Assembly (NCBI GenBank): GCA_963744995.1
Contig: CAVUWA010000002.1
Span: 763,302 to 827,301 of the forward strand
DNA length: 64,000 bases
Source of the DNA: Candidatus Eiseniibacteriota bacterium
GTDB taxonomy: Bacteria; Eisenbacteria; RBG-16-71-46
Direction: 5' to 3'
Shown here: positions 1-63,895 of the stretch, one piece after another
How positions within the stretch are numbered: the stretch's first letter is position 1
Layout: every line of letters begins with the position of its first letter
Notes under the pieces: model-generated
What the model saw: the letters and a program-made list of their open reading frames with translations, nothing else
Told to the model about the DNA's origin: nothing
Databases searched by the model: none
Position numbers and translations under genes: made by a program

Positions 1-543
1 CGGGCGGTGACGATCGGCAATCCGGGCAACCTGCCGCTCGACGTGCTCGACGTCGCGCCCGCCGTGACGGCCACCACGGCCGAGTTCTGGGCGGGACGTA
101 CGAGCTTCACGATCCCCGCCGGATCGAGCGACACGCTGGGCATTTCCTACCGGCCCGCAGGGGTCGGCCGCGACACGGTGGCGTTCACGTTCGTGACCGG
201 CGATCCCGGCTCGCCGCACGAACTGCTGGTGGTGGGCGAGGGGTTGCCCGCTGCGTTCAGCGTGCAGCCGATCGCGCCGAATCCGGTGCGCGACGTCTCG
301 CTGATCCGTTACGCACTGCCGGTTGCGGCCCACGTGAGGCTCGAGGTCTACAACCTGCAGGGCCAGCGCGTGGCGACGCTGGTGAACGCGCGCCAGGCGC
401 CGGGTGAGTATGCCGCGCCGTTCGGGCCCGGCGTGGCGATCGGCGGCGGCGCCGGCCGTGCCGCCCTGCCCGCGGGCGTCTACTTCTACCGCTTCCGCGC
501 CGGGCCGCTCGACGTGAAGCGCAAGATCGTTTTGCTGCGCTGA
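1..543 (+). CDS. C-terminal fragment of a secreted protein ending in a FlgD-Ig/Por-type (T9SS-like) C-terminal sorting domain; 5' end is truncated by the window edge
   Basis: ORF 7..543 translates to ...PNPVRDVSLIRYALPVAAHVRLEVYNLQGQRVATLVNA...GVYFYRFRAG...KRKIVLLR. This is the typical ~80-aa beta-sandwich sorting tail. The ORF is open to position 1. Confidence 0.6.
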   Translation, partial: RAVTIGNPGNLPLDVLDVAPAVTATTAEFWAGRTSFTIPAGSSDTLGISYRPAGVGRDTVAFTFVTGDPGSPHELLVVGEGLPAAFSVQPIAPNPVRDVSLIRYALPVAAHVRLEVYNLQGQRVATLVNARQAPGEYAAPFGPGVAIGGGAGRAALPAGVYFYRFRAGPLDVKRKIVLLR

Positions 544-14033: not shown

Positions 14034-14158
14034 TCCCCGCTTCCAGCGGAGTCGCCCCTTCCATCTGACTCGTCGTGCCCGCCGCGGCGGGGCGCGTGCA
14101 TGCGCCCGGCCGCCGCGAGCGCATGCATTCGACCGAAAGGAACGGAATCTTGAACGTC

Positions 14159-16303: not shown

Positions 16304-16453
16304 GGTGAAGCGTCGCGGCGCGGAGTGAAGTCCGACCCCGCGCCGCCGGCAGCGTTCTGCGGGCGAGCACGGCCGCGTTTCGGCCGGCGCCAGCGCCACC
16401 GGCGGTCTGCGGGTCGCGTTTGCGCTGACCCGCAAATCCGCTACCTTCGCGCG

Positions 16454-19168: not shown

Positions 19169-19171
19169 CGC

Positions 19172-21574
19172 GTGATGCGGCCGGTGCGGACGCTGATCGC
19201 CGTCTTCATCCTGGCCGCCATGGCTGGGCCGGCCGCCGCACGCGACGATCGCCCCAACATCGTCTTCATCTTCTCCGACGACCACGGCGCGCAGGCGATC
19301 TCGACGTACGGCTCGAAGCTCGTCCAGACGCCTGCCATCGACCGGCTCGCCGCCGAGGGCATGCGTTTCGACGACTGCTTCTGCGGCAACTCGATCTGTG
19401 CGCCGAGCCGGGCGACGATCCTGACGGGCCTCCACTCGCATCGCAGCGGCCACACCAGCAACGACCGTATCTTCGACAACCGCGCCGCCACGTTCCCGGA
19501 GCTACTGCACGACGCCGGCTACCAGACCGCCTTGATCGGCAAGTGGCACCTGGAAGCCGAGCCCGAAGGCTTCGACTTCTGGGACGTGCTGATCAAACAG
19601 GGCGTCTACTACAACCCGGACATGATCCGGAACGGCCAGTTCCACCGCACGCACGGCTACGCGACCGACCTCATTACCGACGAGTCGATCGAGTGGCTCG
19701 AGCACCGCGATCCGGACCGCCCGTTCCTGCTCCTGTCGCAGCACAAGGCGCCGCACCGCTCGTGGGAGCCGCCGCTCCGGAACCTCGACCTGTTCGCGGA
19801 TTCGACCATTCCCGAGCCGCCCACGCTGTTCGACGACTGGTCGCACCGTTCATCCGCACATACGTATGCGCACATGTCGATCGCGCGCGACCTGTGGCCG
19901 GGCGATCTGCACCTGGAAGAGATTCCGGACATGTTCACCCCGGGACAGCGCGCCGCGTGGGACTCGGCGTACACGCCGCGCAACCGGGCGTTCCGCGCGG
20001 CCCACCTCGAGGGCGATGCGCTCACGCGCTGGAAGTACCAGCGCTACGCGAAGGACTACCTGCGCTGCGTCGCGGCGCTCGACGAGGACATCGGCCGGCT
20101 GCTCGCCTACCTCGATGCCACCGGGCTCGCGCGCAACACGATCGTGATCTACAGCTCGGATCAGGGCTGGTTCCTCGGCGAGCACGGCATGTTCGACAAG
20201 CGCTGGATGTACGAGGAGTCGTTCCGGATGCCGTTGATCGTGCGCTGGCCGGGAGTCGTCCGCCCCGGTGCGGTGAACACCGACCTCGTACAGAACATCG
20301 ACTTCGCCCCGACGCTGCTCGAGGCGGCGGGCGTCCCCGTGCCGCCGGCGATGCAGGGGGTGAGCCTCGTGCCGCTGCTCGAAGGCCGGCACCCCGCCGA
20401 GTGGCGCACGTCGCTCTACTACCAGTTCTACGAGGACGGCGGCGCGCACCGCGTGCCGCGTCATTGCGGGGTGCGCACCCCGCGCTGGTCCTACCTGGAC
20501 TTCTACCGGATCCACGAGACCGAGCTGTTCGACGTGGACGCGGACCCGCACGAGCTGGTGAGCCTCGCGAACGACCCGGCGCACGCGGCGCTGCGCGATT
20601 CGCTGGCGGGGGTGATGCGCCGCCTGCAGCTGATCTACGGCGTCACCACCGCCGCCGACACGGAGTACGACGACTTCGATCGCTACCAGCACCGGCGCTG
20701 GGCCCTGATCGACTCGATCGGCCGCATGCCGCCCTTCGGCGAGTTCACCGCGGAGACACTGGCGACGCGCACGCACGCCGATCACGACGAACTCTCGCTT
20801 CGCTACCGGATCGGCGGGCAGACCGTGCCGGCCGTGCTGTTCGTGCCGAAGGGCGGAGCGGGCCTCACGCCGGGCGTCGTGCTGATCCACTCGGGCCGCG
20901 CGGCGGGGCCGTTCAGGCAGGGTCTCGAGAGGGTCGCCGGCGGCGCCCGCGCCGCCGCGCTCGCGCTCTGCCGGCGCGGCTTCGCGGTGATCGCGCCCGA
21001 CCGTTTCGGCTACGGCGGCCGGCGCTTCGCGAGCGACGCCGAGGCCGCCCGCGGATTCGCCGCAGCCGAGCGCACGTATCGCGCCGAGGGCTCGTCGCTG
21101 CTCGCGCACGAGCTCGCCGAGCTGTGGTTCGCGCAGGCCTACCTCGCTCGCCTGAGCGGCGTGGAGTTCCTGCGCGTCGGCGCGATCGGCTTCGGCGAGG
21201 GCGGCGACCTGGCGCTGCTGCTCGCGGCCCTGGATCCCGAGGTGGCGGCGGCGGCCAGCGTCGGCGGGGCGGACTCGTTTGCCGCCGCGGCGTTCCGGCC
21301 CGCATCCGCTCTGGCGCGTCTCGATGAACCGCCCGTGCGCGCGTGGGGCGCGATGGCGGGCGTGATTCCCCTGGTCCAGCCGCGGCCGCTGCTGTGCGTG
21401 GGGGAGGGCCCGCGTCGCCCGGCGATGTTCGAAGAAGGTGAAGGCTGGTACCGGCTGCACGACATGTCCGCACGCCTCGCGTACGAACGTGCCGGCGGAC
21501 CCGGTGCGCCGGAGGCTTCTGCTGGTGCGGCGCGCGCGGCGGCGTGGCTCGACAGGTGGCTGATCGGACCCTGA
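19172..21574 (+). CDS. Sulfatase (formylglycine-dependent; C-x-P-S-R motif) fused to a C-terminal dienelactone-hydrolase-like alpha/beta-hydrolase domain; signal peptide
   Basis: IVFIFSDDHG...CAPSRATILTGLHSHRSGHTSN is the sulfatase signature. The C-terminal ~300 aa (...GVVLIHSGRAAG...) are DLH-like. There is a 3-nt gap after the kinase gene. Confidence 0.85.
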   Translation: MMRPVRTLIAVFILAAMAGPAAARDDRPNIVFIFSDDHGAQAISTYGSKLVQTPAIDRLAAEGMRFDDCFCGNSICAPSRATILTGLHSHRSGHTSNDRIFDNRAATFPELLHDAGYQTALIGKWHLEAEPEGFDFWDVLIKQGVYYNPDMIRNGQFHRTHGYATDLITDESIEWLEHRDPDRPFLLLSQHKAPHRSWEPPLRNLDLFADSTIPEPPTLFDDWSHRSSAHTYAHMSIARDLWPGDLHLEEIPDMFTPGQRAAWDSAYTPRNRAFRAAHLEGDALTRWKYQRYAKDYLRCVAALDEDIGRLLAYLDATGLARNTIVIYSSDQGWFLGEHGMFDKRWMYEESFRMPLIVRWPGVVRPGAVNTDLVQNIDFAPTLLEAAGVPVPPAMQGVSLVPLLEGRHPAEWRTSLYYQFYEDGGAHRVPRHCGVRTPRWSYLDFYRIHETELFDVDADPHELVSLANDPAHAALRDSLAGVMRRLQLIYGVTTAADTEYDDFDRYQHRRWALIDSIGRMPPFGEFTAETLATRTHADHDELSLRYRIGGQTVPAVLFVPKGGAGLTPGVVLIHSGRAAGPFRQGLERVAGGARAAALALCRRGFAVIAPDRFGYGGRRFASDAEAARGFAAAERTYRAEGSSLLAHELAELWFAQAYLARLSGVEFLRVGAIGFGEGGDLALLLAALDPEVAAAASVGGADSFAAAAFRPASALARLDEPPVRAWGAMAGVIPLVQPRPLLCVGEGPRRPAMFEEGEGWYRLHDMSARLAYERAGGPGAPEASAGAARAAAWLDRWLIGP

Positions 21575-49421: not shown

Positions 49422-49518
49422 TGACATGTAGAATGGGGCCCCGTCACGGAGGTGAGGTGCGCGCGAGGTGCACCGCAGGCTCCCGGCGATGCACCCATGC
49501 CCGGATGGGCCGGAAGGA

Positions 49519-51105
49519 ATGCCCCGTATCCGTCTCACGATGATGCTTGCCGCGGCCGCGGTTCTGCTCACGACCACCGGCGATCGGCTCGCGCCGGGGC
49601 ACGGGCCCGACGGCGTGCACGCCGTGCGCTCGGGCGCTCCGGCGGGGCTGCCCGTGTTCGCGCTGTTCGGCTGGGTGAGCCCGCCGGCCGACTTCGCCGA
49701 CAGCGCGCGCTACGCGGAGATGGCCGCCGCGGGGCTCAACCTCGCACTGCCCGCGTTCGACGACTCCGGTGGACTCGCCCCGCCCGGCGCGCAGCTGGAC
49801 CTCGCGGAAGCGAACGGACTGCGCGTCATACTCTGGGACCCGCGCTTCGAGAAGCTGGCCGACCCGGGCTACGATCCGGACTCGCTGCTCGATCGCATCG
49901 TCGCCGACTACCGGGATCATCCGGGGCTCGCGGGCTACTACCTGGGTGACGAGCCGCAGCCGTCCCTGCTGCCGTTGCTGGCCCGGGTGCACGCGGGCCT
50001 GCGCGCGCGCGACCCCGCGCACCCCGGCTGGAACAACCTGTTCGGCCGGCAGGCCTACGGCAGCGCGGATGCGCTCGAAGCGGCGCTGCGCGCCTACGCC
50101 GACAGCGTCGCGCCCGCGGTGCTGAGCGACGACCACTACGACTTCACGGAGAGCGGCGATCGGGGCCATTTCATCGAGAACGTGACGCGGCTCGCCGCGG
50201 TCGCACGCGCGCACGGCATTCCGTTCTGGTGCGTGGTGCAGCTCACCCAGCACGCGATATTCCGCGCGCTCACGCCGGGCGAGCTGCGCTGGCAGGTGTC
50301 GCATCTGCTCGCGTACGGCGCGCGCGGTGTCGGCTACTTCACCTACTGGACCCCGGCCGCGGACCCGTACTGGAACTGGCAGCCGGCGGTGATCGACACC
50401 GACGGCACGCGCACGTCGTGGTTCGACGTCCTCGCGGCCTTCAATCCGTACGTGCGTGCGGCCGGCGAGCGGCTCGCGGCCCTCGCCTGGATCACCACGC
50501 AGCATGCGGGCAGCGTGCCGGCAGGCGGGCAGGCGTTCGCGCCGGACGACTGGGTGTCGGCGGTCGAGGGGCGTGCGGCGATCGGCGAATTCGCCGATGC
50601 GCAGGGCGGTCGCCGCGTCGTCGTCGCGAACAGCGACTCGGCGTCGGCGCAGCAGATCGCCCTGACGTTCCCGGGCGCCGACTCGGTGGCGTGGCTCCTG
50701 CCGCCGGGGACGTCGTGGAGCGCCGCACCGGCCGGCGTCGTCCCGGGCGGCCTGCGCGTCACCATGACGATCGAGGCCGGTTCGTTCCGGTTGCTGCGGA
50801 TCTTCGGTGCGGACGGGGGCAGCGGCGCGAGCGGCACGCGTCCGGGCCTCGATCTCTCGCCCAACCCCGCGCGCGGCGCGTGCCGCATGGCCGTAGCCGC
50901 CGCGGTGGGTGGCGCGACGCTCGAGATCATCGACGCCGGCGGCCGGCGCATATGGGCGCGCGCGCTCGCACCCGGACGCTCGGTGGTCGAATGGCACGGC
51001 GAGACCGACGGCGGCGGCCGCGCCCCCGGCGGGCTCTACTTCGCCCGCATCCGCGACGAGCGCGGCACCGCCGTGCGGCGGCTGGCCTGGCTCGGGGCGA
51101 ACTGA
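49519..51105 (+). CDS. Secreted TIM-barrel glycoside-hydrolase-like protein with a C-terminal FlgD-Ig/Por-type sorting domain
   Basis: GGAAGG RBS; signal peptide MPRIRLTMMLAAAAVLLTT. ...YYLGDEP... C-terminal tail ...GLDLSPNPARGACRMAV...GLYFARIRDERGTAVRRLAWL. Confidence 0.65.
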   Translation: MPRIRLTMMLAAAAVLLTTTGDRLAPGHGPDGVHAVRSGAPAGLPVFALFGWVSPPADFADSARYAEMAAAGLNLALPAFDDSGGLAPPGAQLDLAEANGLRVILWDPRFEKLADPGYDPDSLLDRIVADYRDHPGLAGYYLGDEPQPSLLPLLARVHAGLRARDPAHPGWNNLFGRQAYGSADALEAALRAYADSVAPAVLSDDHYDFTESGDRGHFIENVTRLAAVARAHGIPFWCVVQLTQHAIFRALTPGELRWQVSHLLAYGARGVGYFTYWTPAADPYWNWQPAVIDTDGTRTSWFDVLAAFNPYVRAAGERLAALAWITTQHAGSVPAGGQAFAPDDWVSAVEGRAAIGEFADAQGGRRVVVANSDSASAQQIALTFPGADSVAWLLPPGTSWSAAPAGVVPGGLRVTMTIEAGSFRLLRIFGADGGSGASGTRPGLDLSPNPARGACRMAVAAAVGGATLEIIDAGGRRIWARALAPGRSVVEWHGETDGGGRAPGGLYFARIRDERGTAVRRLAWLGAN

Positions 51106-51834: not shown

Positions 51835-54015
51835 TCACGGGGCCGCGGATTTCGGCAGCCCCCAGATCTGCTGAAGCACGAAGTCCACCACCTTCGTGCA
51901 CTGTGCCTTCTGCAGGTTCCAGAGGTCGAAGCCGCTGGTGACCACCCGCGTCCCGTCGGCGCCGTGGTAATAGGTCATCGTGACGTTCTCGGGATTGGTG
52001 GAGGGCAGGCCCGGGCCCACCGCCCGATAGAGCGTATCGAGCGTGCTCGCGGTGTCGGGCATGCCCGGCACCATGCTGACGTCCTCGAGCACCTCGTTCG
52101 GTTGGCTCAGGAATTCGAAGTCGAGCGAGTGGTAGTAGAGAAAGAAGGCCTGCCCGGTGCGCGTGGGTGGCAGCGGATCGGTGGCGAGGGTCTTGAGCGA
52201 CAGCGTCGGCGGCAGCAGCGCGTAGTCGGGGGCCATCGGCCAGCCGCCCACGGCGCGCGCCGAACGGATCATCGTCGCCTGCGCGCGGGTCGCGTCGTAA
52301 TCCGAGCGCCAGCCGGTGGCCTCGTAATAGAAGCCGCCCGGGTGGAGCCCCTGCGGCGTCGCCGCCTGCGCCGTGCCGCCCCCCAGCAGCCACAGCCGGC
52401 CCCCCTGGCCGACGTACGCCGCCAGCGCGTTGATCACGCCGCCCGAGTTCATCACCCGCAGCGACGTCCGGTCGTGGCGCCCGTTGTTGAGCGCGCTCAG
52501 TGCATCGACGATCCAGATCACGTGACGGTAGGTGCTGAGCGTCGTGAAGCTGAACACGTCGTCGGTCGTGCCGAGCGTGTCGTACGCGTAGCCGGCGAAC
52601 AGGCCGGGTGGCGTGAGCGTACCGGCGGGCAGGCAACGCCAGGGCACGTTGCCGCGCGCATAGAGGAATGTGTCCAGCTCCGCCGCAGTCGGCCAGTAGC
52701 CGGAGGCCGGCAGCGGGCAGCCGCCCGGGCCAGCCTGGTCCGGGAGCAACCGGGTATCGTCGACGATCAGCAGATCGCGCGACATGGCCGCGCCGAGCAC
52801 GCGGGTCCTCACGATCCCGAGGCTGCGCAGGCCGAGGTCGTCGCTCGCCTCCACGTAGAAGCGGTGCTCCTCGCCGGCCGGGAACGGACCGACTTCGGCG
52901 GTGAGCGTGAGCGCGCTCGGCGTGCTCCAGTGGCCCACGTCGGTTTCCTCGTCGCTGCGGGGCGTCTCGTCGCTGACGTCGCCGTCCAGGCGCCAGCGAT
53001 AGGCGACCACGGCGCTGCCGGCATTGGGCACCGCGAACCAGCTGATCCGAACCGTGTGGTCGGGCAGCACGTCGAGAGGGATTTCGGCGCGCGGGTCGAG
53101 CGTGTAGCCGCCGCTCGGGTAGGTGTAGCGGAAGTAGTCGTTGTAGAGCGTGAACGTCGGGCCGATCGTCGCCGCGAGGCTCACTTTGAAGCGCAGCACG
53201 TTGGTGTTGAGCGAAAAGACCGGCGAATACGCGCCCGCCTCGTCGATCGCCACGACGACGAACACGTAGGTGGCGCCCGGGGTCAGGTTCGTGAAGTGCA
53301 CGAGCGGACGGTCGCCCGGCGTCGAATCCCATCCGGCGAACGCCGGCGCGAAGTAGCGCCTGAGCGAATCGGGATCGCTGATCGCGACCGACTGCGGGAA
53401 CGACGAGGACGACGTGAGCAGCAGGTACTTGTAGGCGACCGGCGCCTTCGAGTTCACGCCGTCCGGATCGGTGCCGGTCCAGTGCAGCTCGATCGACGAG
53501 GACAGGTTGGCCGGGAGCAGGGCGTTCGGGATCGGGGTCGTGATGATCACCGACGGCGCGACCGTGCGTGTGAAGAACGCCCGCGTCTCGGGCACCGAGG
53601 CCAGCCCCTGGCGGTCGAAGGCCTTGATCAGGAACACGTGGAAGGCGACCGCCTGGCCCGCGGCGCCGCTCGGGTCCGGCTCGTCGGAGCGGAAGACGAG
53701 GCGCGTCTCGTGATCTTCCGTGCGGACCCAGGCGGTATCGTCCGGCGCCGGATCCACCGCGTATTCGAAGTGGTCGATCGCGCCGTCCGGGTCGTACGCG
53801 AACCACTCCAGCGTGTACGCGTACGTGTAGGGTACGGTGGAGCTGGCAGGCGCGTGCTCGAGCTCGATCACCGGGCGCTGGTTGGGAACCAGCATTCCGG
53901 CGGGGCGCTTCACGCAGGCACCCGCCGCCCAGGCGAGCGCCCCTGCGGCGAGCACGGCGGGCAGGGCGTGCCGCAGGCGCAACGGCGCGGGCCGGGCACG
54001 CTCTCGCGCGCTCAT
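51835..54015 (-). CDS. Large predicted lipoprotein with FN3/Ig-like beta-sandwich repeats (third gene of a coupled three-gene operon)
   Basis: Signal peptide plus ...LAWAAGAC. Repeated ...W.G.D.DG... beta-sandwich segments. ATG overlaps the upstream stop (ATGA). Confidence 0.7.
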   Translation of the reverse strand: MSARERARPAPLRLRHALPAVLAAGALAWAAGACVKRPAGMLVPNQRPVIELEHAPASSTVPYTYAYTLEWFAYDPDGAIDHFEYAVDPAPDDTAWVRTEDHETRLVFRSDEPDPSGAAGQAVAFHVFLIKAFDRQGLASVPETRAFFTRTVAPSVIITTPIPNALLPANLSSSIELHWTGTDPDGVNSKAPVAYKYLLLTSSSSFPQSVAISDPDSLRRYFAPAFAGWDSTPGDRPLVHFTNLTPGATYVFVVVAIDEAGAYSPVFSLNTNVLRFKVSLAATIGPTFTLYNDYFRYTYPSGGYTLDPRAEIPLDVLPDHTVRISWFAVPNAGSAVVAYRWRLDGDVSDETPRSDEETDVGHWSTPSALTLTAEVGPFPAGEEHRFYVEASDDLGLRSLGIVRTRVLGAAMSRDLLIVDDTRLLPDQAGPGGCPLPASGYWPTAAELDTFLYARGNVPWRCLPAGTLTPPGLFAGYAYDTLGTTDDVFSFTTLSTYRHVIWIVDALSALNNGRHDRTSLRVMNSGGVINALAAYVGQGGRLWLLGGGTAQAATPQGLHPGGFYYEATGWRSDYDATRAQATMIRSARAVGGWPMAPDYALLPPTLSLKTLATDPLPPTRTGQAFFLYYHSLDFEFLSQPNEVLEDVSMVPGMPDTASTLDTLYRAVGPGLPSTNPENVTMTYYHGADGTRVVTSGFDLWNLQKAQCTKVVDFVLQQIWGLPKSAAP

Positions 54016-55289
54016 GGACGGCGCCCCGCGATCAGGTCGAACGCGTTGCGGCGATAGATGTAGACGACCAGCCTGGGCTGTCGCGATGGGTCGGAGGTCG
54101 TGGGGGAGGCCCAGCCGAAGTTGGAGTCGGCATCGAGGCGGTAGCCGAAGCGCGCCCTCCCGCGCATGCGCGACTCGAGGTGCGAGGCGAGGCGCGGCGA
54201 ATGGAACCGCACCCGATTGCCCGCCATCACTTCACCGATCGCGAGCGGCGAGGCAGTGGGGTCGTCGTAGGGCGGCCCCGGGTAACCGATGCCGCATGCC
54301 ATCCATGCACCCTCGGTGCCGCTGATCGTGAGCCTGCGCCCGTTCGGGTTGGAGCCCGCCGACGAAGGCGTGAGGACGAGGACCGCGTCCGCGAGCCGCA
54401 GGTCGTCGCCGTACCCGCTCAGCTCCCAGTCCATCGCACCGTTGTAGGAGGGCCCGCAACCCACGGTCGCGCTGAAGCAGCTCCGGACATCGCCGAAGTT
54501 CGACACGTGTCGCACCGAGGCCCACTGCGAGCACACCAGTGTCAGCGAGTCGACCGGCAGTCCCGTCGAGAGCGTCCCGAAGCGCCAGACCGGACCCTCG
54601 GCCACTTCGCCCGTGGACAGATTCGTCGCTCTCACCGACCAGTAGTGCGTCTCACCCAGCGTCCAGGCCGGGTCGGGAGCATAGGTGGCGAAGCCCGTCG
54701 CGGCGACCGCGGGCGCCGTGCGGGCCGCGACCGACGCCGAGTCGGAGCTTTCGAAGATCTCGTAGCGGATCGTACCGGCGGTGGGCTCGGTGGAGTCCCA
54801 CGCGAGCGGCACGAACGCCGACTCGTCCACCGTGCCGGCTGCGGGCGAGGGATGCGCCGGACGCCGCACGCCGTTGGTCCTGAACTGCCAGAAGAACGGC
54901 TCGAGCGCGGCGCCGTCCGCGGCGCGCACCCCGTCGCCGAAGCTCACCGTGTGAGTGCGCAGCAGCTCGAGCAGGGCCTGCGGCTCGATGTGCACGCGCC
55001 GCCGCGCAGGCTCCCAGGTGATCGCGATCGGGATCCGCCGCGTATCGCGCTTGAGGAAGATGCGATCGGGGCCGAGCGTCGCAGGGTCCAGGTCGCGATC
55101 GAAGTCGGCCCAGATGTCGGTCTCGGCGAGCACGCCGGTCGAGCGGCTCGCCGGCATGAGGCCCGTCACCAGCGCCGGCGGCGCTTCTTCCGGGCCGGCG
55201 AGATCCGCGGCGTGGTGCCGGGCGCAGCCGCCGAGCGCGACGGCGAGCGCGAATGCAAGCGCCGAAGTCCGGATCGAAGGCGCGCTCAT
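54012..55289 (-). CDS. Predicted lipoprotein with Ig-like domains (middle gene)
   Basis: MSAPSIRTSALAFALAVALGGC lipobox. ATGA overlaps on both sides. The ORF-track N-terminal extension is rejected. Confidence 0.7.
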   Translation of the reverse strand: MSAPSIRTSALAFALAVALGGCARHHAADLAGPEEAPPALVTGLMPASRSTGVLAETDIWADFDRDLDPATLGPDRIFLKRDTRRIPIAITWEPARRRVHIEPQALLELLRTHTVSFGDGVRAADGAALEPFFWQFRTNGVRRPAHPSPAAGTVDESAFVPLAWDSTEPTAGTIRYEIFESSDSASVAARTAPAVAATGFATYAPDPAWTLGETHYWSVRATNLSTGEVAEGPVWRFGTLSTGLPVDSLTLVCSQWASVRHVSNFGDVRSCFSATVGCGPSYNGAMDWELSGYGDDLRLADAVLVLTPSSAGSNPNGRRLTISGTEGAWMACGIGYPGPPYDDPTASPLAIGEVMAGNRVRFHSPRLASHLESRMRGRARFGYRLDADSNFGWASPTTSDPSRQPRLVVYIYRRNAFDLIAGRRP

Positions 55290-57667
55290 CGGATCACCAC
55301 GAACTTGCCGCGCTGGGTGCCGAACGGGGAGTCCACCGTGAACAGGTAGATCCCCGATTCCACCTCCTGGCCGTTGCGCGAGACCAGGTCCCACGCGGCT
55401 TCGCCGGCGCCCGCGCGGCCGTCGTGGTGGATCACCTGCACCAGATCGCCGGCGACGGTCCAGATCTTGAGCGTGGCCTCGGCCTTCGGCATGCCCATGA
55501 AGTCGATGTGGCGGGTGCGGATGTCGCCGCTCACCGGCGGGCGCTCCCAGGCGGCCGAGGCGCGGAACGGGTTCGGCACCACCCACACCCCGCGACCCGA
55601 CGCGATCGCCTCCACGCGCGGGGTCACGCGCTCGTCGAACGAGGCGAGCAGCGCGCTCTCGAGCGGCGTGTGCAGGAAGCTGCCGTTCGGCTGGCGGCTC
55701 ACGTAGTCGTACATCGAGGTGACGACGTAGACGTAGTCGAAGCCGTTGAGCGGCGTGTCGTCGACGAACCGGTAGTGGCCCGGGGGATAGAGCTTCTTCT
55801 CGAACAGGATGCGCTCGTAGTCGACCGTGGAGTCGATCGTGGCAGTGAGTGCGGCGGCGCCGTCGAGCGGATCGTCGCTGAACACGCGGCGGATGGACCA
55901 CTGGCGGCGCTCCGGGAGCAGGGCGCCGCGACCGCTCCAGTCGTCGATCCGGTAGAGCCGGTATCCGAGGAAGCGCGACTCACGCGAGCCGTACTGACCG
56001 CCGGCAAGGAGCACCTCGGGCCGGTTGTCCCACTCGATCGTCACCCTGTGGTCGCCGGGGGTGACCCGCCAGCCGGGCGGCGGTGGGACTGCGCCGGGAT
56101 CGGTCCAGTGCAGGTGCGTCTCGCGTCCGCCGAAACCGGTGCACGGATCGCAGTCGGCGTCGGTCCAGATGCAGCTGTCTGCGGTGTAGGTGACCGCAGG
56201 GCCCGTGAACTCGCAACCGGGGAACTTGGTGGTGTTGTAGCAGTGTGGATCCCATTCGAACGTCACGCCCGGCGGCGCCGAGATACAGGACTCGTGACCA
56301 TTCAGACCCGACTCGCCCGAGTACCAGACCGTCGAGTCGGCCGTCTCGATGTCCGGGAGTAGATCAGCGAGCACCCCATCGTGATGCCGCAGCGCATCGG
56401 TCCCCACGGCGTCCACGCTGTCGGCGGCCGGGGCGACGATCAGCGCCGCCGAGAACGTGATCGACTGACCCGGTTCGAGCCTTGCGAACGGGCCGCACGA
56501 GACCAGCGCCACGTAGTCCGCGCCGTCGTCTTCGTCCGGCGCCTGCGTGAGCTGCCCGGCGAGCGCCGCATAGCGAGCCAGATCGGTCGTCGGCACACCA
56601 CCCTGCCCGGGTGGACGGTCCCTCGCGAAAATCAGGTTGCGGAACGACACACGGCTCGGCGCGCGCGCGTAACGGGCGGCGGGCGGGATCAGGCCGAGCG
56701 GATCGGTGGTGTGATCGAGTCCGATGACCGCGATTCGCGCCGGCGCGGATGATGAGGCGTCGCCGACCACCAGCGCGCGGCCGGTCACGGTCCGGATGCA
56801 CGGTTCGGGCGGCGGGACGCCAGGACCGGGGACGCACTTGATCACGTCCCGCCGCGGGCCTTCCCACGTGATGGTGTTGATCCCGAGTCCGTCGTTCACC
56901 GAGAATCCCCACGTCGCGCGCCCGATCCGGTCGTTGATGTGGCCGGACGGATCCTCGCGGCGCCGCGAGTCGAGGTCGGCATAGAGACCCACGTAGACGT
57001 CGGTCAGCGTCTCGCTGGAGTGGTTGGTGATGGTGTACTTCAACGCCGCCCAGCGATCGTACCCGGGGCGTCCCCAGCCGAGGACCTCCTGGTGCACCGA
57101 CAACCCGAGCGGGACGTGATTCTCGACGCCGGTGCTGAAACGCACCGCCTCCGGCTGGTCGTCGGTGTAATCGGCGGCGAGCAGCTGATCGGCGGCCAGA
57201 CCGATGTCCTCGTCCACCTCGCCGTCGTGGTCGTCGTCTCGACCGTTCAGGGTCTCTTCGTCGATCGCGCCGTCGCCGTCGTCGTCCACCAGCCACAGGC
57301 TGCCGAGCCGCCCGCGCCTCGCCTCGACCACCCGGTCGCTCGGGTCCAGCGTCGGCCGCCATTCGAGGAGCGGGTCGCCGGAGACGCGGATCACCCCGTC
57401 GGCGTTGCGCGCGCCCACCCACAGCGAAGCGTAGTTCAGCATCTCGTAGCCGGAGTAGGCGGGGTATTCGAGCGACGGGTCGAACGAACGACCTTCGGAG
57501 AAGAACGCGTTGCCGACGATGCCGGCGTTGGTCACGCGCATGCGGAAGGCGCCGACGTCCAGCACGGGACCCTTGTCCCCGATGTCTAGCACTGCGAATG
57601 CGCGGGCGGGAAACAGGGTGAAAAGGATGCACAGCGCGAAGGTGAATCGGCGCGTCGGCAGCTTCAA
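55286..57667 (-). CDS. Large secreted protein with Asp-rich Ca2+-binding loops, a Cys-rich module and a C-terminal FlgD-Ig/Por-type sorting domain (first gene)
   Basis: DDDGDGAIDEETLNGRDDDHDGEVDED; ...CISAPPGVTFEWDPHCYNTTKFPGCEFTG...CDPCTGFGG. Tail VWVVPNPFRASAAW...GIYLFTVDS...KFVVIR. Probable TTG start (LKLPTRRFTFALCILFTLFPARAFA) after AGGAG. Uncertain by about 80 nt. Confidence 0.7.
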   Translation of the reverse strand: MKLPTRRFTFALCILFTLFPARAFAVLDIGDKGPVLDVGAFRMRVTNAGIVGNAFFSEGRSFDPSLEYPAYSGYEMLNYASLWVGARNADGVIRVSGDPLLEWRPTLDPSDRVVEARRGRLGSLWLVDDDGDGAIDEETLNGRDDDHDGEVDEDIGLAADQLLAADYTDDQPEAVRFSTGVENHVPLGLSVHQEVLGWGRPGYDRWAALKYTITNHSSETLTDVYVGLYADLDSRRREDPSGHINDRIGRATWGFSVNDGLGINTITWEGPRRDVIKCVPGPGVPPPEPCIRTVTGRALVVGDASSSAPARIAVIGLDHTTDPLGLIPPAARYARAPSRVSFRNLIFARDRPPGQGGVPTTDLARYAALAGQLTQAPDEDDGADYVALVSCGPFARLEPGQSITFSAALIVAPAADSVDAVGTDALRHHDGVLADLLPDIETADSTVWYSGESGLNGHESCISAPPGVTFEWDPHCYNTTKFPGCEFTGPAVTYTADSCIWTDADCDPCTGFGGRETHLHWTDPGAVPPPPGWRVTPGDHRVTIEWDNRPEVLLAGGQYGSRESRFLGYRLYRIDDWSGRGALLPERRQWSIRRVFSDDPLDGAAALTATIDSTVDYERILFEKKLYPPGHYRFVDDTPLNGFDYVYVVTSMYDYVSRQPNGSFLHTPLESALLASFDERVTPRVEAIASGRGVWVVPNPFRASAAWERPPVSGDIRTRHIDFMGMPKAEATLKIWTVAGDLVQVIHHDGRAGAGEAAWDLVSRNGQEVESGIYLFTVDSPFGTQRGKFVVIR

Positions 57668-57844
57668 AGAGGACTCACTCCTGGGGGAGTCTGTGGGAGG
57701 GAAAACGTGCGAACGAGAATACCACCAACCGCGCCGCCGCCGTGGCACATCTGCGCGGCCCGCGGCTCACGGCGTGCCGCCGTAACGAGTTCGGACTTTG
57801 CGCTTGACGCCGGGCGCGACTGCGCACAAGGTAGGCGCAGACAT

Positions 57845-58095
57845 CTTCCGCGGTGCCCGCAAACAGCGGGGTAATAGGGAAGGGGGTGCGATTCCCCCAC
57901 GGTCCCGCCACTGTGATGGGTTCCCGGAGTCTCATGCGCCACTGATCCCCTGGATCGGGAAGGCGAGGCTCCGACGGCCCTCAGTCAGGAAACCTGCCCG
58001 GAAGCCATCGCTCGCAGCGCTTCGTGAGAAGGCGTTGAGGCGTTCGGCGCTCCCAGGGCTCCGTCGCTTCGCCCCCGCGAAGACGGAGCTTTTCG
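57845..58095 (+). ncRNA. Cobalamin (B12) riboswitch with an intrinsic-terminator expression platform
   Basis: ggtgcccgcaaacagcggggtaatagggaagggggtgcgattcccc...gccactgtgatgg...gggaaggc...gccctcagtcaggaaacctgcccgg contains the conserved B12-box. It is followed by the hairpin ccgtcgcttcgc-cccc-gcgaagacgg plus agcuuuucg, which overlaps the btuB RBS. Confidence 0.85.
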
Positions 58096-58096
58096 A

Positions 58097-60199
58097 TTGG
58101 GCGCGGGCAACGCCGTGATCGTCGCACTCGTTCTCCTCATGTCTCTGGCGCTCGCGCACGACGCGGACGCGGCGCGCACGGCGCCGTTCGCCGAGGTCCG
58201 CCGCGATGCGCGGGGAGCCGCGGTGGCCGACTCCGCCGCCCCGCCGGCGCCGAACTCCGCCGCGCTCGAGACAAGGCTCGACTCGGTAGTGGTGCTGCCC
58301 GAGGTGGTGGTCGAGCGCGAACGGGCGCTCGACGCCGCGCGGCGCCGGCGCCCGACGGGTTTCGTCACCGAGCTGTCCCCGGACGCCGTGCCGCGCACGT
58401 ACGAGACGGCGGCCGACCTCTTGCGTCAGGCGGCCGGCGTGCACGTCGTCCAGTACGGCGGGCTCGGCGCGTTCAGCACCGTGTCGCTGCGCGGCGCGCC
58501 GGCGGGGCAGGTCGCCGTGTACGTGGATGGCGTGCCCATGCAGTCGGCGGCGCGGACCGTGGTGAATCTCGCCGAGCTGCCGATGGGTTCGATCGAGACG
58601 ATCGAGGTCTATCGCGGTGGCGCCCCGCTGTCGCTCGGGCCCGGGCGTCCGGGCGGCGCGATCCAGCTCACCACGGCGATCGGCGCCGGCGCGAGCGCGC
58701 GGGTGACGCGCGGCTCGTTCGACACGTGGGACGTGGCCGCGCGTGCCGGGGCGACGCGCGGCGCGTTCGCCGCCGCCGTACACGGGGGCTATCAGGGTTC
58801 GGACGGCGACTACCGCTATCTGAACGACAACGGCACGCCGTTCAACCCCGGTGACGACGTCGAGGCCGTGCGCGTGAACAACCGCTTCGACATGGCGCAC
58901 GGTGGCGCGCGGCTCGAATGGCGGCCGGACGACCGCTGGCGCGTGCGGGCGGCGGGGAAAATCGAGCGGCAGGGGCAGGGGTTCCCCGGGCTCGGCTCGA
59001 TCCCGGCGCTCGACGCGCGCGCGCGGCTGCTCTCGGGCGACGTGCAGTCGTCGATCGAGCGATGGTTTTCCGGCGGCGGGCGCGTCGAGTGGTCGGGACT
59101 CTGGCAGGCGGACCGGCGTCGCTTCGGGGATCCGATGGGCCGGCTCGGGCTCGGGCGGCACCTGACCGACGATCGCTTTCGCGCGATCCAGACCGCGCTG
59201 CACCTGGAGACGCCGGAGCGTTTCGACGTGCGCCTCGAAGGCGGCGTGTCGCTCCGGGGCGAGCGCGCCACGCTGCGCGATGCGCTGGACGGGCGGCCGG
59301 ATCCGCCGCCGAGCACGCGGCGCACGCAGAGCGCCCGGGCGGGGGTGCGCTGGAGGCCGGGCGCGGGGCCGGTGCTGCTGGTCGCGGACCAGCGCTGGGA
59401 CCGGTCGAGCGATCGCCTGCATGCGGCGACGCCCGGACCCGCAGGGGGGCTCGAGACCGTGCGCGAGACGCGCTCGCCGGAACTCGGTGCGCGGCTCATG
59501 CTCGGGGGCGGCGTCGAGCTGCGCGCGAACTGGGCGCAGGCCGAACGCGTACCCGACTTCCTCGAACTGTTCGGCGATCAGGGCGGCGTGAGCGGGAACC
59601 CGTCGCTGCGGCCCGAGCGCGTCGTGAGCCGTGACGCCGGCCTCGCCTGGTCGGGCCGCATGCCGCTCGTCCCGCGTGCTTCGCTCGCGTGGGCGCACTT
59701 CGAATCGAACGGCGAGGACTTCATCGTCTTCGTCAGACAGTCGCAGACCGCGGTCAAGGCGCAGAACGTCGCGCGCGCACGGATCCGCGGCGAAGAACTC
59801 TCGCTGGCGGGAGAGTTGCCGCTGGGCTTCGAGCTGGCCGCCGCGCTGACGTGGCAATCCGCGATCGACCAGGGCGACGTGCCGTTCTGGCGCGGCCACC
59901 GCCTGCCGCAGCGCCCCGGCCGGGAGTCGTACGCACGACTCGGCTGGAAGGGCGGCGTGCTGCGCGCCTCGCTCGAAGGCCGCTTCGTCGGCGACAGCTA
60001 CCGCGACCGCGCCAACCAGCAGCGCGTGCCGAGCCGCACGCTGGTCGACGCGTCATTTTCGTGGACGCCCGGCGACGGTCCGTTCCGCTTCACGCTCGAA
60101 GGCCGCAACCTCGGCGACCGCCGCGTGGCCGACGTCGCCGGCTACCCGCTGCCCGGGCGCAGCCTGCTCGCTTCCATCGACTGGCACGCGGGCCGCTGA
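58097..60199 (+). CDS. btuB: TonB-dependent receptor, probable cobalamin transporter
   Basis: TTG start after a GGAG RBS. Signal peptide; plug ...VVVLPEVVVE..., ...IETIEVYRGGAPLSLG... Lies directly downstream of the B12 riboswitch. Confidence 0.85.
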   Translation: MGAGNAVIVALVLLMSLALAHDADAARTAPFAEVRRDARGAAVADSAAPPAPNSAALETRLDSVVVLPEVVVERERALDAARRRRPTGFVTELSPDAVPRTYETAADLLRQAAGVHVVQYGGLGAFSTVSLRGAPAGQVAVYVDGVPMQSAARTVVNLAELPMGSIETIEVYRGGAPLSLGPGRPGGAIQLTTAIGAGASARVTRGSFDTWDVAARAGATRGAFAAAVHGGYQGSDGDYRYLNDNGTPFNPGDDVEAVRVNNRFDMAHGGARLEWRPDDRWRVRAAGKIERQGQGFPGLGSIPALDARARLLSGDVQSSIERWFSGGGRVEWSGLWQADRRRFGDPMGRLGLGRHLTDDRFRAIQTALHLETPERFDVRLEGGVSLRGERATLRDALDGRPDPPPSTRRTQSARAGVRWRPGAGPVLLVADQRWDRSSDRLHAATPGPAGGLETVRETRSPELGARLMLGGGVELRANWAQAERVPDFLELFGDQGGVSGNPSLRPERVVSRDAGLAWSGRMPLVPRASLAWAHFESNGEDFIVFVRQSQTAVKAQNVARARIRGEELSLAGELPLGFELAAALTWQSAIDQGDVPFWRGHRLPQRPGRESYARLGWKGGVLRASLEGRFVGDSYRDRANQQRVPSRTLVDASFSWTPGDGPFRFTLEGRNLGDRRVADVAGYPLPGRSLLASIDWHAGR

Positions 60200-60222
60200 C
60201 GGCACGCGCTTCCGGAGGTTCC

Positions 60223-61623
60223 ATGCATCCCGCAGGACTGCTCAGGCCGGTTCTCTTCGCCCTGCTGATCGCCGCCACCCCCGTCGCCGCCGCGGAGACC
60301 ACGGCGTACGTGGTCACCACCGACTTCGCGACCGGCAACATGGCGTCGATCTCGCTCGACACGCACGCGGTCGCCGCGAACGTGGCCAGCGTCCATTCCG
60401 ACGCGCGCGCGCGCTGGCACGACGGGCTGCTGTACGTGGTCAACCGCTACGGCCAGGACAACGTCCAGGTGGTGGACCCCGCACAGGGCTTCGCCACGAT
60501 CCGTCAGTTCTCGACCGGGCCGGGCTCGAACCCGCACGACATCGCCTTCATCAGTCCGACGAAGGCCTATGTGACGCGCTTCGAACTCGGCGACCTGCTG
60601 ATCGTGAACCCGCAGAACGGGGCCACGCTCGGGGTGATCCCGCTCGGTGCGTTCGCCGACGCCGACGGCATCCCCGAAATGGACCAGATGGTCCGCGTCG
60701 GCACGCGCGTGTTCGTGAGCCTCGAGCGGCTCGACCGCAACAACGGTTTCGTGCCCGCCGACTCGAGCCTGGTGGCGGTGATCGACACGCAGGCCGACAC
60801 CGTGATCGACGCGAACCCGCTGCAGGCCGGAATCCAGGCGATCCGCCTGCAGGGCACGCAGCCGTTCACCGAGTTCGCGTTCGACAAACCCACGTCGCGG
60901 CTGCTGATCGGCTGTGTCGGGAATTTCGGCGTGATGGACGGCGGCATCGAGCGCATCGATCCGGTGAATCTCGTGAGCGGCGGGTTCGCAATCAGCGAGG
61001 CGCAGCTCGGCGGCGACGTCAACGACCTCGTGTGGGACGGCCCCGCGCGCTCGTTCGCGATCGTCAGCGACGCCTCCTACAACACGCTGCTGGTCGCCTT
61101 CGACGCGAACGCCGGCGCGGTCACCGACACCGTGTTCGCGCCGGGCGGCTACAGCCTGGCCGACGCCGCGCTCGACGACCGCGGCGAGCTGTACGTCGCG
61201 AAGAACGATTTCAGCGCCCCCGGCGTGTTCGTGTTCGATGCCGCGACGGGTGCCGCGCTCGCCGGTCCCCTGAATACCGGGCTGCCGCCGTTCCAGATCG
61301 TGTTCGACGAGGAGAACGGGCAGGTGGCTTCGGTGCCGCGCGCCGGCGGCATCGCGCTCGCGCCGCCGTGGCCGAACCCGGCATCGCGGGAGGTGCAGTT
61401 CTCGGTCGCGCTGGAGCAGGCCGGCGAGCTCGACGTCGGTGTCTACGACGCCGCCGGTCGGCGCGTCCGCACCCTGTTCGCAGGTTCCGCCGCGGCGGGG
61501 ATCCGCGCACTGCGCTGGGATCTCACGAGCGCCGGCGGCCGCCGTGCCCCCGCGGGGCTCTACTGGCTGAGCGTCGCGGGCGCGGGCGCGCGGCGGACGC
61601 GGCGGGTCGTCGTGCTGCCGTAG
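60223..61623 (+). CDS. Secreted beta-propeller-like protein with a C-terminal FlgD-Ig/Por-type sorting domain; candidate surface B12-binding (BtuG-like) accessory protein
   Basis: GGAGGTT RBS; signal peptide MHPAGLLRPVLFALLIAATPVAAA. Repeated ...Y(V/A)...D...V blades. Tail ...PPWPNPASREVQFSV...GLYWLSV...RRVVVLP. Starts 24 nt after btuB. Confidence 0.75.
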   Translation: MHPAGLLRPVLFALLIAATPVAAAETTAYVVTTDFATGNMASISLDTHAVAANVASVHSDARARWHDGLLYVVNRYGQDNVQVVDPAQGFATIRQFSTGPGSNPHDIAFISPTKAYVTRFELGDLLIVNPQNGATLGVIPLGAFADADGIPEMDQMVRVGTRVFVSLERLDRNNGFVPADSSLVAVIDTQADTVIDANPLQAGIQAIRLQGTQPFTEFAFDKPTSRLLIGCVGNFGVMDGGIERIDPVNLVSGGFAISEAQLGGDVNDLVWDGPARSFAIVSDASYNTLLVAFDANAGAVTDTVFAPGGYSLADAALDDRGELYVAKNDFSAPGVFVFDAATGAALAGPLNTGLPPFQIVFDEENGQVASVPRAGGIALAPPWPNPASREVQFSVALEQAGELDVGVYDAAGRRVRTLFAGSAAAGIRALRWDLTSAGGRRAPAGLYWLSVAGAGARRTRRVVVLP

Positions 61624-61710: not shown

Positions 61711-63705
61711 CTACCGCAACTCGGCGCTCGCCCCCGCCACCTTCTTCCACGGCTCCTTGCGACCGCCCAGGTATTTCGCCAGGAACTCCTCGGTGCGTCC
61801 GTTGAAGTCCTCGCCGTTGGCCGGCCGGCCGAAGCCGTGGCCTTCGTCGGGATAGACCACGTACGTCACGTCGCGCCCGTGACGGCGCATGGCCTCGACG
61901 ATCTGGTTCGATGACGCGATCGTCACCCGCGGGTCGTTGGCGCCGTGCCCGATCAGCAGCGGCGCGCGGATCGTGTCCACGTGGTACAGCGGCGAGATCG
62001 CCCGGTTCAGCGAATCGTCGTGCATGACGTCGCCGACGCGCGAAATCCAGCGCTTGAGACGCGGCTTCCAGTAGGGTGGGAAGGAGGCGATCAGAACGCG
62101 CAGGTCCGAAGGGCCGACGACGTCCACGCCGCAGGCGTAGAGCTCCGGCGTGAACGCGAGCCCGGCGAGCGTCGCGTAGCCGCCGTAGGAGCCGCCCATG
62201 ATCCCGATCCGCTTCGGGTCGGCGATGCCCTGTGCGATTGCCCAGCGCACGCCGTCGCTGACGTCCTGCTGCATGTGACCGGTGCCCATCTGGCCCGTGC
62301 TGGCCGCCACGAACGCGTTGCCGAACCCGGTCGAGCCGCGGAATTCAGGCTGCAGAACCGCGTAGCCCCGGTTGGCGAGCCACTGCACCTCCAGATTGAA
62401 GCCCCACTCGTCGCGCGCCCACGGGCCGCCATGCGGCATCACCACCATCGGCAGATGCTTTGCCGGCACGCCGACCGGCAGCGTCAGAAACGCCGAGATC
62501 TCGAGGCCGTCGCCGGCCTCGTAGGTCACCGGCTTCATCGGCGCGAACGTGTACTTGTCCAGCCCCGGCCGGTGCTCGAACAGCAGCTCGAGGTCGCCGC
62601 TCCGCCGATCGTAGACGTAGTACGCACCGGGATGAACGTCCGAATAGAACGCCACGATCCAGCGCCGGTCGTCGCGATCGCGGCTCACGACGTCGAACGC
62701 CCCTTTGCCTGCCTCGCGCAGGCGCGCGAAGTCCTTTTCGAGCGCAGGATCGACGACCCGCCACTCGGGAATCATCCGGTGCACCCTGTAGGCCTGAATC
62801 GCATCGTTCACGGGCGAGGTCATCACGGCCACCGGGAAGAATTCCTGTGACACGCTGAGCGCGTTGTAGAGGTCGTTCTTCGGGTCGGCCGGGATCAGGT
62901 CGTGCTGCGCGCCGCTCGCGAGGTCGACCTCGACGATGCGCGTGGTATTGGAGCCGACACAGGACTGCACGCGCAGCGCACGGCCGTCGGGCGAAAAGCC
63001 GAGCACGCGCTGGAAGCGATCGAACCCCGCCTCCTCGAACGACCACTTCAGCAGGTCGCGCCACGGTCCGCCCGCTTCGTCGCGCACCCGGATGATCGCG
63101 CTGCCCTGGTCGTCGATGGCCGCGCACGCGCGGATGTGGAAGTCGGCGTCGGCCACCCATTCGACCACGCCGCCCGGGTTTTCGGCCTCGAGCGTGACGT
63201 CGCCCGTCTCGAGGTTCACCCGGTACATGTCGATGACGGCCGGATCGCGCCGGTTGAGGCCCACCAGAACCACGTCGCGGTGGCGCGGGTCGGTGAGCAG
63301 GTTCGCGGCGCGCACGCCGGGGAACGGCGTCAGGTCGCGCGCGGCGCCCCCCGCGAGGTCGGTGGACCACAGGTGCCAGTTCTCGTCGCCGTCGCGGTCC
63401 TGGATGTAGAGCAGCCGGTCGCCGGCGGGGGCCCACGCGTAGGCGTAGACCCCGCGCTTCGTCGCGCGGGTGAGCTGGCGATCTTCGCGGGTGCCGACCT
63501 TCCGCACGAACAGATTGCGGATCCCCCCCTCTCCGGCGCCGGCGAAGGCGAGGTGGACGCCGTCCGGCGAGATCTGCGGATCGCCGTGGTCGGCCGGGGC
63601 GAACAGTTCGGCGCGCGGCACGAGCGGCGGCAGGGCCGCCGTCGCGGGCATCGTGGCGCCCAGCAGCAGCAGCACGGCGAGCATCGAAGCGAAATGGAAA
63701 GCCAT
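61711..63705 (-). CDS. S9-family serine peptidase (prolyl-oligopeptidase/acylaminoacyl-peptidase-like): N-terminal beta-propeller plus C-terminal alpha/beta hydrolase
   Basis: Signal peptide MAFHFASMLAVLLLLGATMPATAA. ...SPDG... blades. Nucleophile GGSYGG, ...DDSLNRA..., ...GHG. AGGAGA RBS. Confidence 0.85.
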   Translation of the reverse strand: MAFHFASMLAVLLLLGATMPATAALPPLVPRAELFAPADHGDPQISPDGVHLAFAGAGEGGIRNLFVRKVGTREDRQLTRATKRGVYAYAWAPAGDRLLYIQDRDGDENWHLWSTDLAGGAARDLTPFPGVRAANLLTDPRHRDVVLVGLNRRDPAVIDMYRVNLETGDVTLEAENPGGVVEWVADADFHIRACAAIDDQGSAIIRVRDEAGGPWRDLLKWSFEEAGFDRFQRVLGFSPDGRALRVQSCVGSNTTRIVEVDLASGAQHDLIPADPKNDLYNALSVSQEFFPVAVMTSPVNDAIQAYRVHRMIPEWRVVDPALEKDFARLREAGKGAFDVVSRDRDDRRWIVAFYSDVHPGAYYVYDRRSGDLELLFEHRPGLDKYTFAPMKPVTYEAGDGLEISAFLTLPVGVPAKHLPMVVMPHGGPWARDEWGFNLEVQWLANRGYAVLQPEFRGSTGFGNAFVAASTGQMGTGHMQQDVSDGVRWAIAQGIADPKRIGIMGGSYGGYATLAGLAFTPELYACGVDVVGPSDLRVLIASFPPYWKPRLKRWISRVGDVMHDDSLNRAISPLYHVDTIRAPLLIGHGANDPRVTIASSNQIVEAMRRHGRDVTYVVYPDEGHGFGRPANGEDFNGRTEEFLAKYLGGRKEPWKKVAGASAELR

Positions 63706-63895
63706 GGCGTCTCCTGACAGGGTGTCTCGGGTCGACCGACTGGTGTGGTGAGAACGCTTTGCATCCGGACGGCCGTGAGCCATCATCGCACGCTACGCGC
63801 CCGGCGGCGCGAATGTTTCGGGCGCGGCCCGGCGCCGCCGGACGGATCGGAATCGCGGACCTGCGCCGCAGGGCACATCGAACGGGAGGGAGAGG

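Follow-up and report, generated by a model that had tools for sequence, protein, structure and literature searches.

A cobalamin riboswitch-linked BtuB-like receptor and a BtuG-like propeller partner with a type IX sorting domain in an Eisenbacteria-type bacterium

A stretch of 64,000 nucleotides (nt) from Candidatus Eiseniibacteriota bacterium (GCA_963744995.1, contig CAVUWA010000002.1, positions 763,302-827,301 of the forward strand; hereafter the window) carries a cobalamin riboswitch followed by the genes for a BtuB-like TonB-dependent receptor and a BtuG-like β-propeller, the latter ending in a C-terminal domain (CTD) of the type-A class recognized by type IX secretion systems (T9SS). These features probably define a B12-repressed, two-gene operon for corrinoid uptake with a CTD-tethered propeller of the BtuG type. 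BtuG has been reported as a surface lipoprotein and, after 313 gut genomes were surveyed by BlastP, as exclusive to the Bacteroidetes (Wexler et al., 2018; PMC6143338), and the review literature to September 2026 treats BtuBG as a feature of gut Bacteroidota (PMC13616437). Our search of the literature on BtuG in connection with type IX secretion returned nothing relevant, and the reviews to 2026 mention neither a BtuG from outside the Bacteroidetes nor a connection with the T9SS. What is new here, and largely supported by the sequence comparisons described below, is that bacteria of the Eisenbacteria type would pair BtuB with a BtuG-like protein bearing a T9SS-type CTD.

The cobalamin riboswitch (RF00174; positions 57833-58015, + strand) is the sole Rfam match within the window, and with a cmscan score of 104.7 bits (E 3.9e-25) against a gathering threshold of 31.5 it covers the full length of the aptamer model (model positions 1-189). 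The start codon of the receptor open reading frame (ORF) lies about 80 nt 3′ of the aptamer, and the intervening leader contains a candidate expression platform (58056-58096, + strand). This comprises a hairpin at 58056-58091, with 10+5 bp in the centroid of the RNA fold, whose 3′ arm holds the Shine-Dalgarno sequence GGAG (58085-58088), and a UUUU run (58090-58093) directly ahead of the TTG start at 58097; it resembles an expression platform that could operate by Shine-Dalgarno sequestration or by termination. The receptor stop codon (60197-60199) is followed by a gap of 23 nt, inside which lies the ribosome-binding site GGAGG (60214-60218, + strand), and then by the ATG of the propeller gene at 60223. 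A promoter and terminator scan gave nothing informative. From the spacing and the conserved gene order, riboswitch, receptor and propeller would form a single transcription unit, as had been proposed in a first-pass annotation made from the letters of this DNA; the three elements are present at or near the coordinates given there, although the intergenic gap was put at 24 nt and the proposed start of the locus, 57845, falls 12 nt within the aptamer.

The first gene of the pair (58097-60199, + strand) starts with TTG and encodes a receptor of 700 aa with a signal peptide, a plug domain and a 22-strand-barrel domain (Pfam Plug, 64 bits; TonB_dep_Rec_b-barrel, 118 bits). A profile built from 28 orthologues of the receptor was searched against the PDB, where the best match, over the full length, was BtuB1 of Bacteroides thetaiotaomicron (8blw_A, 6.4e-43), followed by an unnamed TonB-linked receptor (9gbc_A, 8.5e-43). 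BtuB from Escherichia coli (E about 1e-40), BtuB2 (7e-35) and BtuB3 (1e-33) were also matched, with CirA at 3e-31 and the siderophore receptors at 5e-20 or weaker, so that BtuB proteins outrank every named siderophore, haem and other receptor. On these profile matches the receptor is BtuB-like, its nearest solved relatives being characterized BtuB proteins.

The second gene (60223-61623, + strand, with its stop codon at 61621-61623) encodes a protein of 466 aa. Its N-terminus, MHPAGLLRPVLFALLIAATPVAAA/ETT, presents a Sec signal peptide of the signal peptidase I (SPI) type without any cysteine (aa 1-24, 60223-60294), for which cleavage is predicted at PVAAA/E, and an N-terminal Cys is likewise absent from the consensus of 40 propeller homologues. 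The alignment of these homologues (51-76% identity) served as input to AlphaFold2, and the resulting model (predicted local distance difference test score, pLDDT, 88.6; predicted template modelling score, pTM, 0.73) consists of an all-β domain at residues 27-361, a low-confidence segment at residues 369-375 where the pLDDT drops below 50, and a seven-strand sandwich at residues 377-464. The protein can thus be divided into a seven-bladed BtuG-like β-propeller (aa 25-362, 60295-61308), a flexible linker (aa 363-382, 61309-61368) and the CTD (aa 383-466, which together with the stop codon occupies 61369-61623), all on the + strand. The middle part, of some 340 residues, matches no Pfam family. 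The signal peptide and propeller that the first-pass annotation had read in this protein are therefore borne out, the former in the sequence and the latter in the model, and so is the resemblance to BtuG that it had suggested, as the fold comparisons below make clear.

Chains of BtuG2 and BtuG3 occupy ranks 2-14 of the Foldseek results (E 1e-14 to 1e-12, template modelling score 0.75-0.80), rank 1 going to an archaeal protein that combines a YVTN propeller with PKD and for which two domains matched at once. In the structure comparison the highest score, 31.7, was obtained with BtuG1 from the BtuB1G1 complex (8blw_B; 2.6 Å over 306 residues, 21% identity), with 8ptf_A, BtuG1 according to the preprint, at 31.5 and BtuG2 (8bn0_A) at 31.4; the seven-bladed fold is superposable on the BtuG structures, which lead the structural matches by a clear margin. 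When the family profile was searched against the PDB its propeller part matched BtuG chains only (E 3e-5), the codes so matched being listed by Abellon-Ruiz et al. (PMC10404256), under data availability, as those of BtuG2, BtuG3 and BtuBG complexes. For a profile-profile comparison full-length BtuG2 (366 aa, with a lipobox at Cys32) was taken from gut metagenome contigs, a query with an 83-aa fragment having given truncated proteins only, and its alignment comprised 14 close relatives, all of them Pfam DUF5074; this alignment is narrow, all members being at least 76% identical, and it includes neither BtuG1 nor BtuG3. Aligned against it with hhalign, the propeller family gave a probability of 94.7% (E 6e-8) over 281-292 columns, which span the entire propeller. 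The receptor lies nearest to chain A and the propeller nearest to chain B of 8BLW, so that a single complex, BtuB1-BtuG1, supplies the best solved match to each of the two proteins; this complex is described, together with the 'pedal-bin' model, by Abellon-Ruiz et al. (2023; PMC10404256). An enzymatic, lactonase-like function was also considered for the propeller and was rejected because BtuG outranks such folds and the linkage to the riboswitch points to B12.

The corrin contacts of BtuG2 (bioRxiv 10.1101/2024.02.16.580637; PMC13616437) were mapped onto the propeller through the hhalign alignment, the set considered being E55, G56, Q93, N107, S131, R133, W149, S195 and Q219 together with W194, W272, Y316 and Y335. 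Two of them, N107 and Q219, are retained as N74 and Q205 and are invariant in 40/40 homologues, while S131 and S195 align with N103 and R169, which are changed yet invariant in the propeller family. The glutamates E180 and E275 have counterparts in E152 and E259, and W272 is replaced by alanine in the family, as it is in BtuG3. The propeller is strongly acidic, with a net charge of -24 over aa 24-372 (family range -13 to -25) compared with -18 for BtuG2, a protein described in the literature as attracting cobalamin electrostatically. The conserved contact residues and the acidity together lend partial support to corrinoid binding by the propeller. At the position of BtuG2 Q219, the residue corresponding to Q205 is glutamine in all riboswitch-linked members inspected but one, P0376, which has a gap, and it is D, S or a gap in the riboswitch-less L158, L160, L163 and L166; this position may be a marker of specificity, the number of cases being very small.

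The CTD, a seven-strand Ig-like sandwich of about 85 aa in the AlphaFold2 model, reaches 27.7 bits against a cutoff of 23 with TIGR04183, the NCBIfam model of the 'T9SS type A sorting domain', and 39.1 bits against a cutoff of 27 with FlgD_ig (PF13860), which is its best Pfam match, while Por_Secre_tail (PF18962) remains below its cutoff of 27 with 16.8 bits. Of the Por/FlgD-Ig sorting domain named in the first-pass annotation, it is therefore the FlgD_ig assignment that holds and the Por_Secre_tail assignment that falls short; with no lipobox in the protein and a T9SS type-A CTD at its end, the view that this domain stands in place of a lipid-anchor signal is sustained. The family profile also matches the CTDs of PorU (6za2, 6e-5) and PorZ (5m11, 7e-3), and the motif series PNP...D.xGR.V...G.Y...R..V is found at the extreme C-terminus. 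With a hidden Markov model (HMM) of the tail, four ORFs of the window were found to carry it at their very end, namely 1-543 (+), 49456-51105 (+), 55286-57766 (-) and 60223-61623 (+). The CTD, being common to three further, unrelated ORFs, thus behaves like a sorting tag. The E-values of the tail HMM in these three are 1e-11, 6e-13 and 8.5e-8 respectively, and their main bodies contain no recognizable Pfam domain.

The arrangement of the locus is conserved among relatives. A scan of species-representative genomes returned 223 relatives, the best of them 65-66% identical to the propeller protein, and the best 80 were analysed for synteny and taxonomy. These 80 derive mostly from metagenome-assembled genomes (MAGs) of Candidatus Eisenbacteria, the others being from Krumholzibacteriota and Latescibacterota, with no member from the Bacteroidota; a few bins with other taxon labels probably reflect noise in binning or labelling. 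In every one of the 75 loci with upstream DNA, the gene directly upstream, on the same strand, encodes a receptor homologue (28-52% identity), and the riboswitch is found in 54 of the 57 loci with a full 3 kb upstream, the exceptions being L158, L160 and L163. Five contigs with homologues of 53-59% identity present the order riboswitch, receptor, propeller in every case, bringing the riboswitch to 59/62 testable relatives (54/57 plus 5/5, counting L167). Synteny with riboswitch and btuB in relatives, on which the first-pass annotation had made its proposal depend, is thus the rule, and its attribution of the architecture to this lineage was an understatement in view of the at least three candidate phyla related to the Fibrobacterota-Chlorobiota-Bacteroidota (FCB) group that share it.

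An exhaustive profile search extended the family to 3,069 clusters at 50% identity, 742 of them at E<=1e-30, and the named members are annotated solely as 'hypothetical' or 'YncE'. Most members combine an SPI signal, the propeller and the CTD. A minority instead carry a lipobox and end right past the propeller ('...GLPPxQIAFR'), examples being L102 (...NAGC/SSS), L105 (...LGGC/STT), L108 (...LAGC/SVR) and L157 (...LPAC/EQE), with L101 as a further lipobox-bearing member devoid of a CTD. Of 149 cluster representatives some 49 have a CTD, and the lipobox forms that lack it number at least 42. In a neighbour-joining tree, in which the 'LIPO+CTD' labels were ignored as false positives of a regular expression, lipobox forms arise at no fewer than three separate places inside CTD-bearing clades, and the distant lipoprotein L167 keeps the riboswitch-receptor-propeller order. 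Read from this tree, the predicted anchor is shown to have been swapped at least three times, with CTD and lipobox interchangeable for what would be one job. Lipoprotein members with extra architectures also occur, such as L158 (722 aa), L160 (605 aa), P0263, P0282 and P0289; in some lipoproteins of the family the lipobox is followed by a poly-Gly linker and the C-terminus is formed by an additional domain that closes with '...CTLHVRSE', and others place the propeller behind an N-terminal extension of 150-450 aa. L166, from a MAG labelled as Spirochaetota, is a distant lipoprotein whose gene has that of a Plug-domain receptor on one side, a TonB_C gene on the other and no riboswitch, and the pairing of receptor and propeller therefore reaches beyond FCB-type bins.

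These data suggest a mode of action in which cobalamin scarcity would permit, through the riboswitch, expression of the BtuB-type transporter together with the BtuG-type propeller. The propeller would cross the inner membrane via Sec and, directed by its type-A CTD, would be carried over the outer membrane by a T9SS; removal of the CTD would then leave it tethered at the cell surface, with a C-terminal tether replacing the lipid by which Bacteroides BtuG is anchored at its N-terminus. By analogy with Bacteroides BtuBG, its acidic face may capture environmental corrinoids and pass the ligand to the transporter beneath.

Several observations weigh against this interpretation. The identity between the propeller protein and BtuG is just 16-21%. 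PF16819 (DUF5074) is unmatched by the propeller protein at E<=0.1 and even at E<=10, and its matches in the close relatives are sub-threshold and confined to 3/40 (best E 7e-4), for which reason the propeller family, on profile evidence, is a remote sister of DUF5074 that lies outside it by the Pfam threshold. The receptor likewise falls far short of the NCBIfam BtuB equivalogs TIGR01779 and NF007926 (94.2 versus 599.7 bits and 49.7 versus 836). Within the predicted ligand site the BtuG2 contacts W149 (E in the family), W194 (Q/E) and R133 (Q/H) are not conserved, Q93 aligns with an alanine at a gap edge, and the loop holding E55, G56 and F58 is reduced in length and falls outside the alignment, with an invariant D34 nearby. 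The riboswitch was not detected in L158, L160, L163 and L166 of the broader family. The leader hairpin is put forward as no more than a candidate platform because its folding energy is not distinctive (z-score -1.5, not significant alone). Finally, a Pfam scan recognized no T9SS core machinery (SprA/Sov, PorV, PorU, PorK/L/M/N), btuFCD or B12-dependent enzyme genes among 33 ORFs of the window, and the searchable literature yielded no documentation of a T9SS in Eisenbacteria. Type IX secretion has been placed in FCB phyla generally and is absent from Bacteroides spp. (PMC11285876), which is consistent with the lipid anchor that these bacteria use for BtuG.

Some of these observations would suit a YncE-like surface or secreted propeller that is co-expressed with the receptor but does not bind corrinoids, and that acts as a cap with a structural role, as an adhesin, as an enzyme on a substrate related or unrelated to B12, or as a binder of another ligand: substitutions affect roughly half of the residues with which BtuG2 contacts its ligand, the family stays below the Pfam threshold for DUF5074, and some broader-family loci have no riboswitch. 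We nevertheless consider such a role quite improbable given riboswitch control in 59/62 relatives across three candidate phyla, the BtuB-like receptor alongside, the clear lead of BtuG among the structural matches and the invariant polar residues that align with the corrin-amide contacts N107 and Q219 of BtuG2. The substituted contacts moreover have a precedent in BtuG1, which is about 24% identical to BtuG2 and has about 60% of the contacts in common with it, both proteins binding B12 tightly (bioRxiv 10.1101/2024.02.16.580637). A periplasmic, BtuF-like carrier acting downstream of the receptor, in which the FlgD-Ig-like CTD would be no secretion signal, seems very unlikely. Such a carrier would accord with FlgD_ig as the best Pfam match over a sub-threshold Por_Secre_tail, with the lack of a btuF gene next to the operon and with lipoprotein variants that could face the periplasm, but it sits poorly with the above-cutoff match to the NCBIfam T9SS type-A domain, the profile matches to the PorU and PorZ CTDs, the sorting motifs at the extreme C-terminus, the recurrence of the same tail on three unrelated ORFs of the window and the extracellular action of BtuG homologues.

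What is known of fold, operon and CTD would suit equally a released 'cobalophore', that is, a corrinoid-binding propeller exported by the T9SS into the medium that would bring the ligand back to the receptor in the manner of a hemophore instead of serving as a lid. Anchored and released cargo cannot be told apart from sequence, and among T9SS cargoes with a type-A CTD both fates occur, many Flavobacterium cargoes being soluble. We regard release as unlikely, since the lipobox that replaces the CTD in family members encoded in the same operon argues that tethering to the membrane next to the receptor is the selected property, and Bacteroides BtuG is found in a stable complex with BtuB (PMC10404256). 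A propeller tethered through its CTD as the partner of a BtuB-type transporter thus remains the probable arrangement.

Compared with BtuG1/BT1490, BtuG2/BT1954 and BtuG3/BT2095 of B. thetaiotaomicron, the propeller protein shows a likeness that comprises remote homology, acidity, a cobalamin riboswitch and a btuB neighbour, while the differences are substantial. The propeller gene lies downstream of btuB, whereas it is upstream in BtuG loci; a lipobox or any other lipoprotein export signal is absent, its place being taken by a signal of the SPI type and a type-A CTD of the T9SS class, so that any tether would be C-terminal; the pocket tryptophans W149, W194 and W272 of BtuG2 are all replaced; and the host is Eisenbacteria-like and not a member of the Bacteroidota. 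The C-terminal BtuH-like B12-binding domain of BtuG1 is absent, and while the hinge of the Bacteroides complex is an N-terminal lipidated linker, formation of a complex between the two proteins described here is put forward by analogy. XusB and other propeller lids of TonB-dependent transporters in Bacteroides are structurally farther than BtuG; XusB is a lipoprotein that binds xenosiderophores. With T9SS cargo such as RgpB and HBP35 of Porphyromonas gingivalis the protein shares a Sec signal, a functional domain and a C-terminal Ig-like domain of about 85 aa with seven strands, but its best Pfam match is FlgD_ig and not Por_Secre_tail, and its host phylum has no T9SS documented in the literature searched. 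The IhtA/IhtB pair of P. gingivalis also joins a TonB-linked receptor to a co-encoded surface protein of the CTD family that handles the ligand before uptake; it differs from the propeller operon in its haem/iron ligand, its CbiK-like chelatase fold and the lack of a riboswitch.

The surroundings of the operon vary. In the window the propeller gene adjoins a convergent S9 peptidase gene (61711-63786, -). In three related loci (L001, with the gene at 9706-10386, L003, at 9697-10368, and L002) it is followed by a gene for a protein of 223-226 aa with a weak FN3-like domain and the same CTD, and then by an M48 peptidase, while in L005 the M48 peptidase follows alone without the small CTD protein. 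Elsewhere in the window a second TonB-dependent receptor (14069-16303, +), likewise composed of a plug and a barrel, has no riboswitch; the next genes 3′ of it encode a PD40-repeat Ser/Thr kinase (16304-19168) and a sulfatase (19169-21574). The ORF at 54012-55901 (-) contains a Big_5 Ig-like domain and as listed shares about 600 nt with the 3′ end of the CTD-protein gene next to it (55286-57748); because of this overlap its true start is probably the internal Met at MSAPSIRTSALAFALAVALGGC..., a plausible start that carries a lipobox.

The large environmental sister family described here retains the riboswitch-btuB-propeller operon in candidate phyla of soil and sediment. The wider proposition, that lidded BtuB-BtuG transport did not originate in the Bacteroidetes and is an older device, widespread in FCB-related and other environmental bacteria, with an interchangeable lid anchor, which in Eisenbacteria, Krumholzibacteriota and Latescibacterota would be a T9SS-delivered C-terminal tether, stands in our judgement evenly balanced. 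If true, the propeller would be the first T9SS cargo to act as a lid dedicated to a TonB-dependent transporter, CTD and lipid anchors would have replaced one another repeatedly in evolution, and the family would constitute a natural experiment on lid anchoring in which an N-terminal lipid can be set against a C-terminal, T9SS-dependent tether. It would also provide a cargo of predictable function for studies of T9SS-like sorting beyond the Bacteroidota. Lipoprotein-assisted capture of B12 would then extend to uncultured soil bacteria, with a bearing on the economics of B12 in soil.

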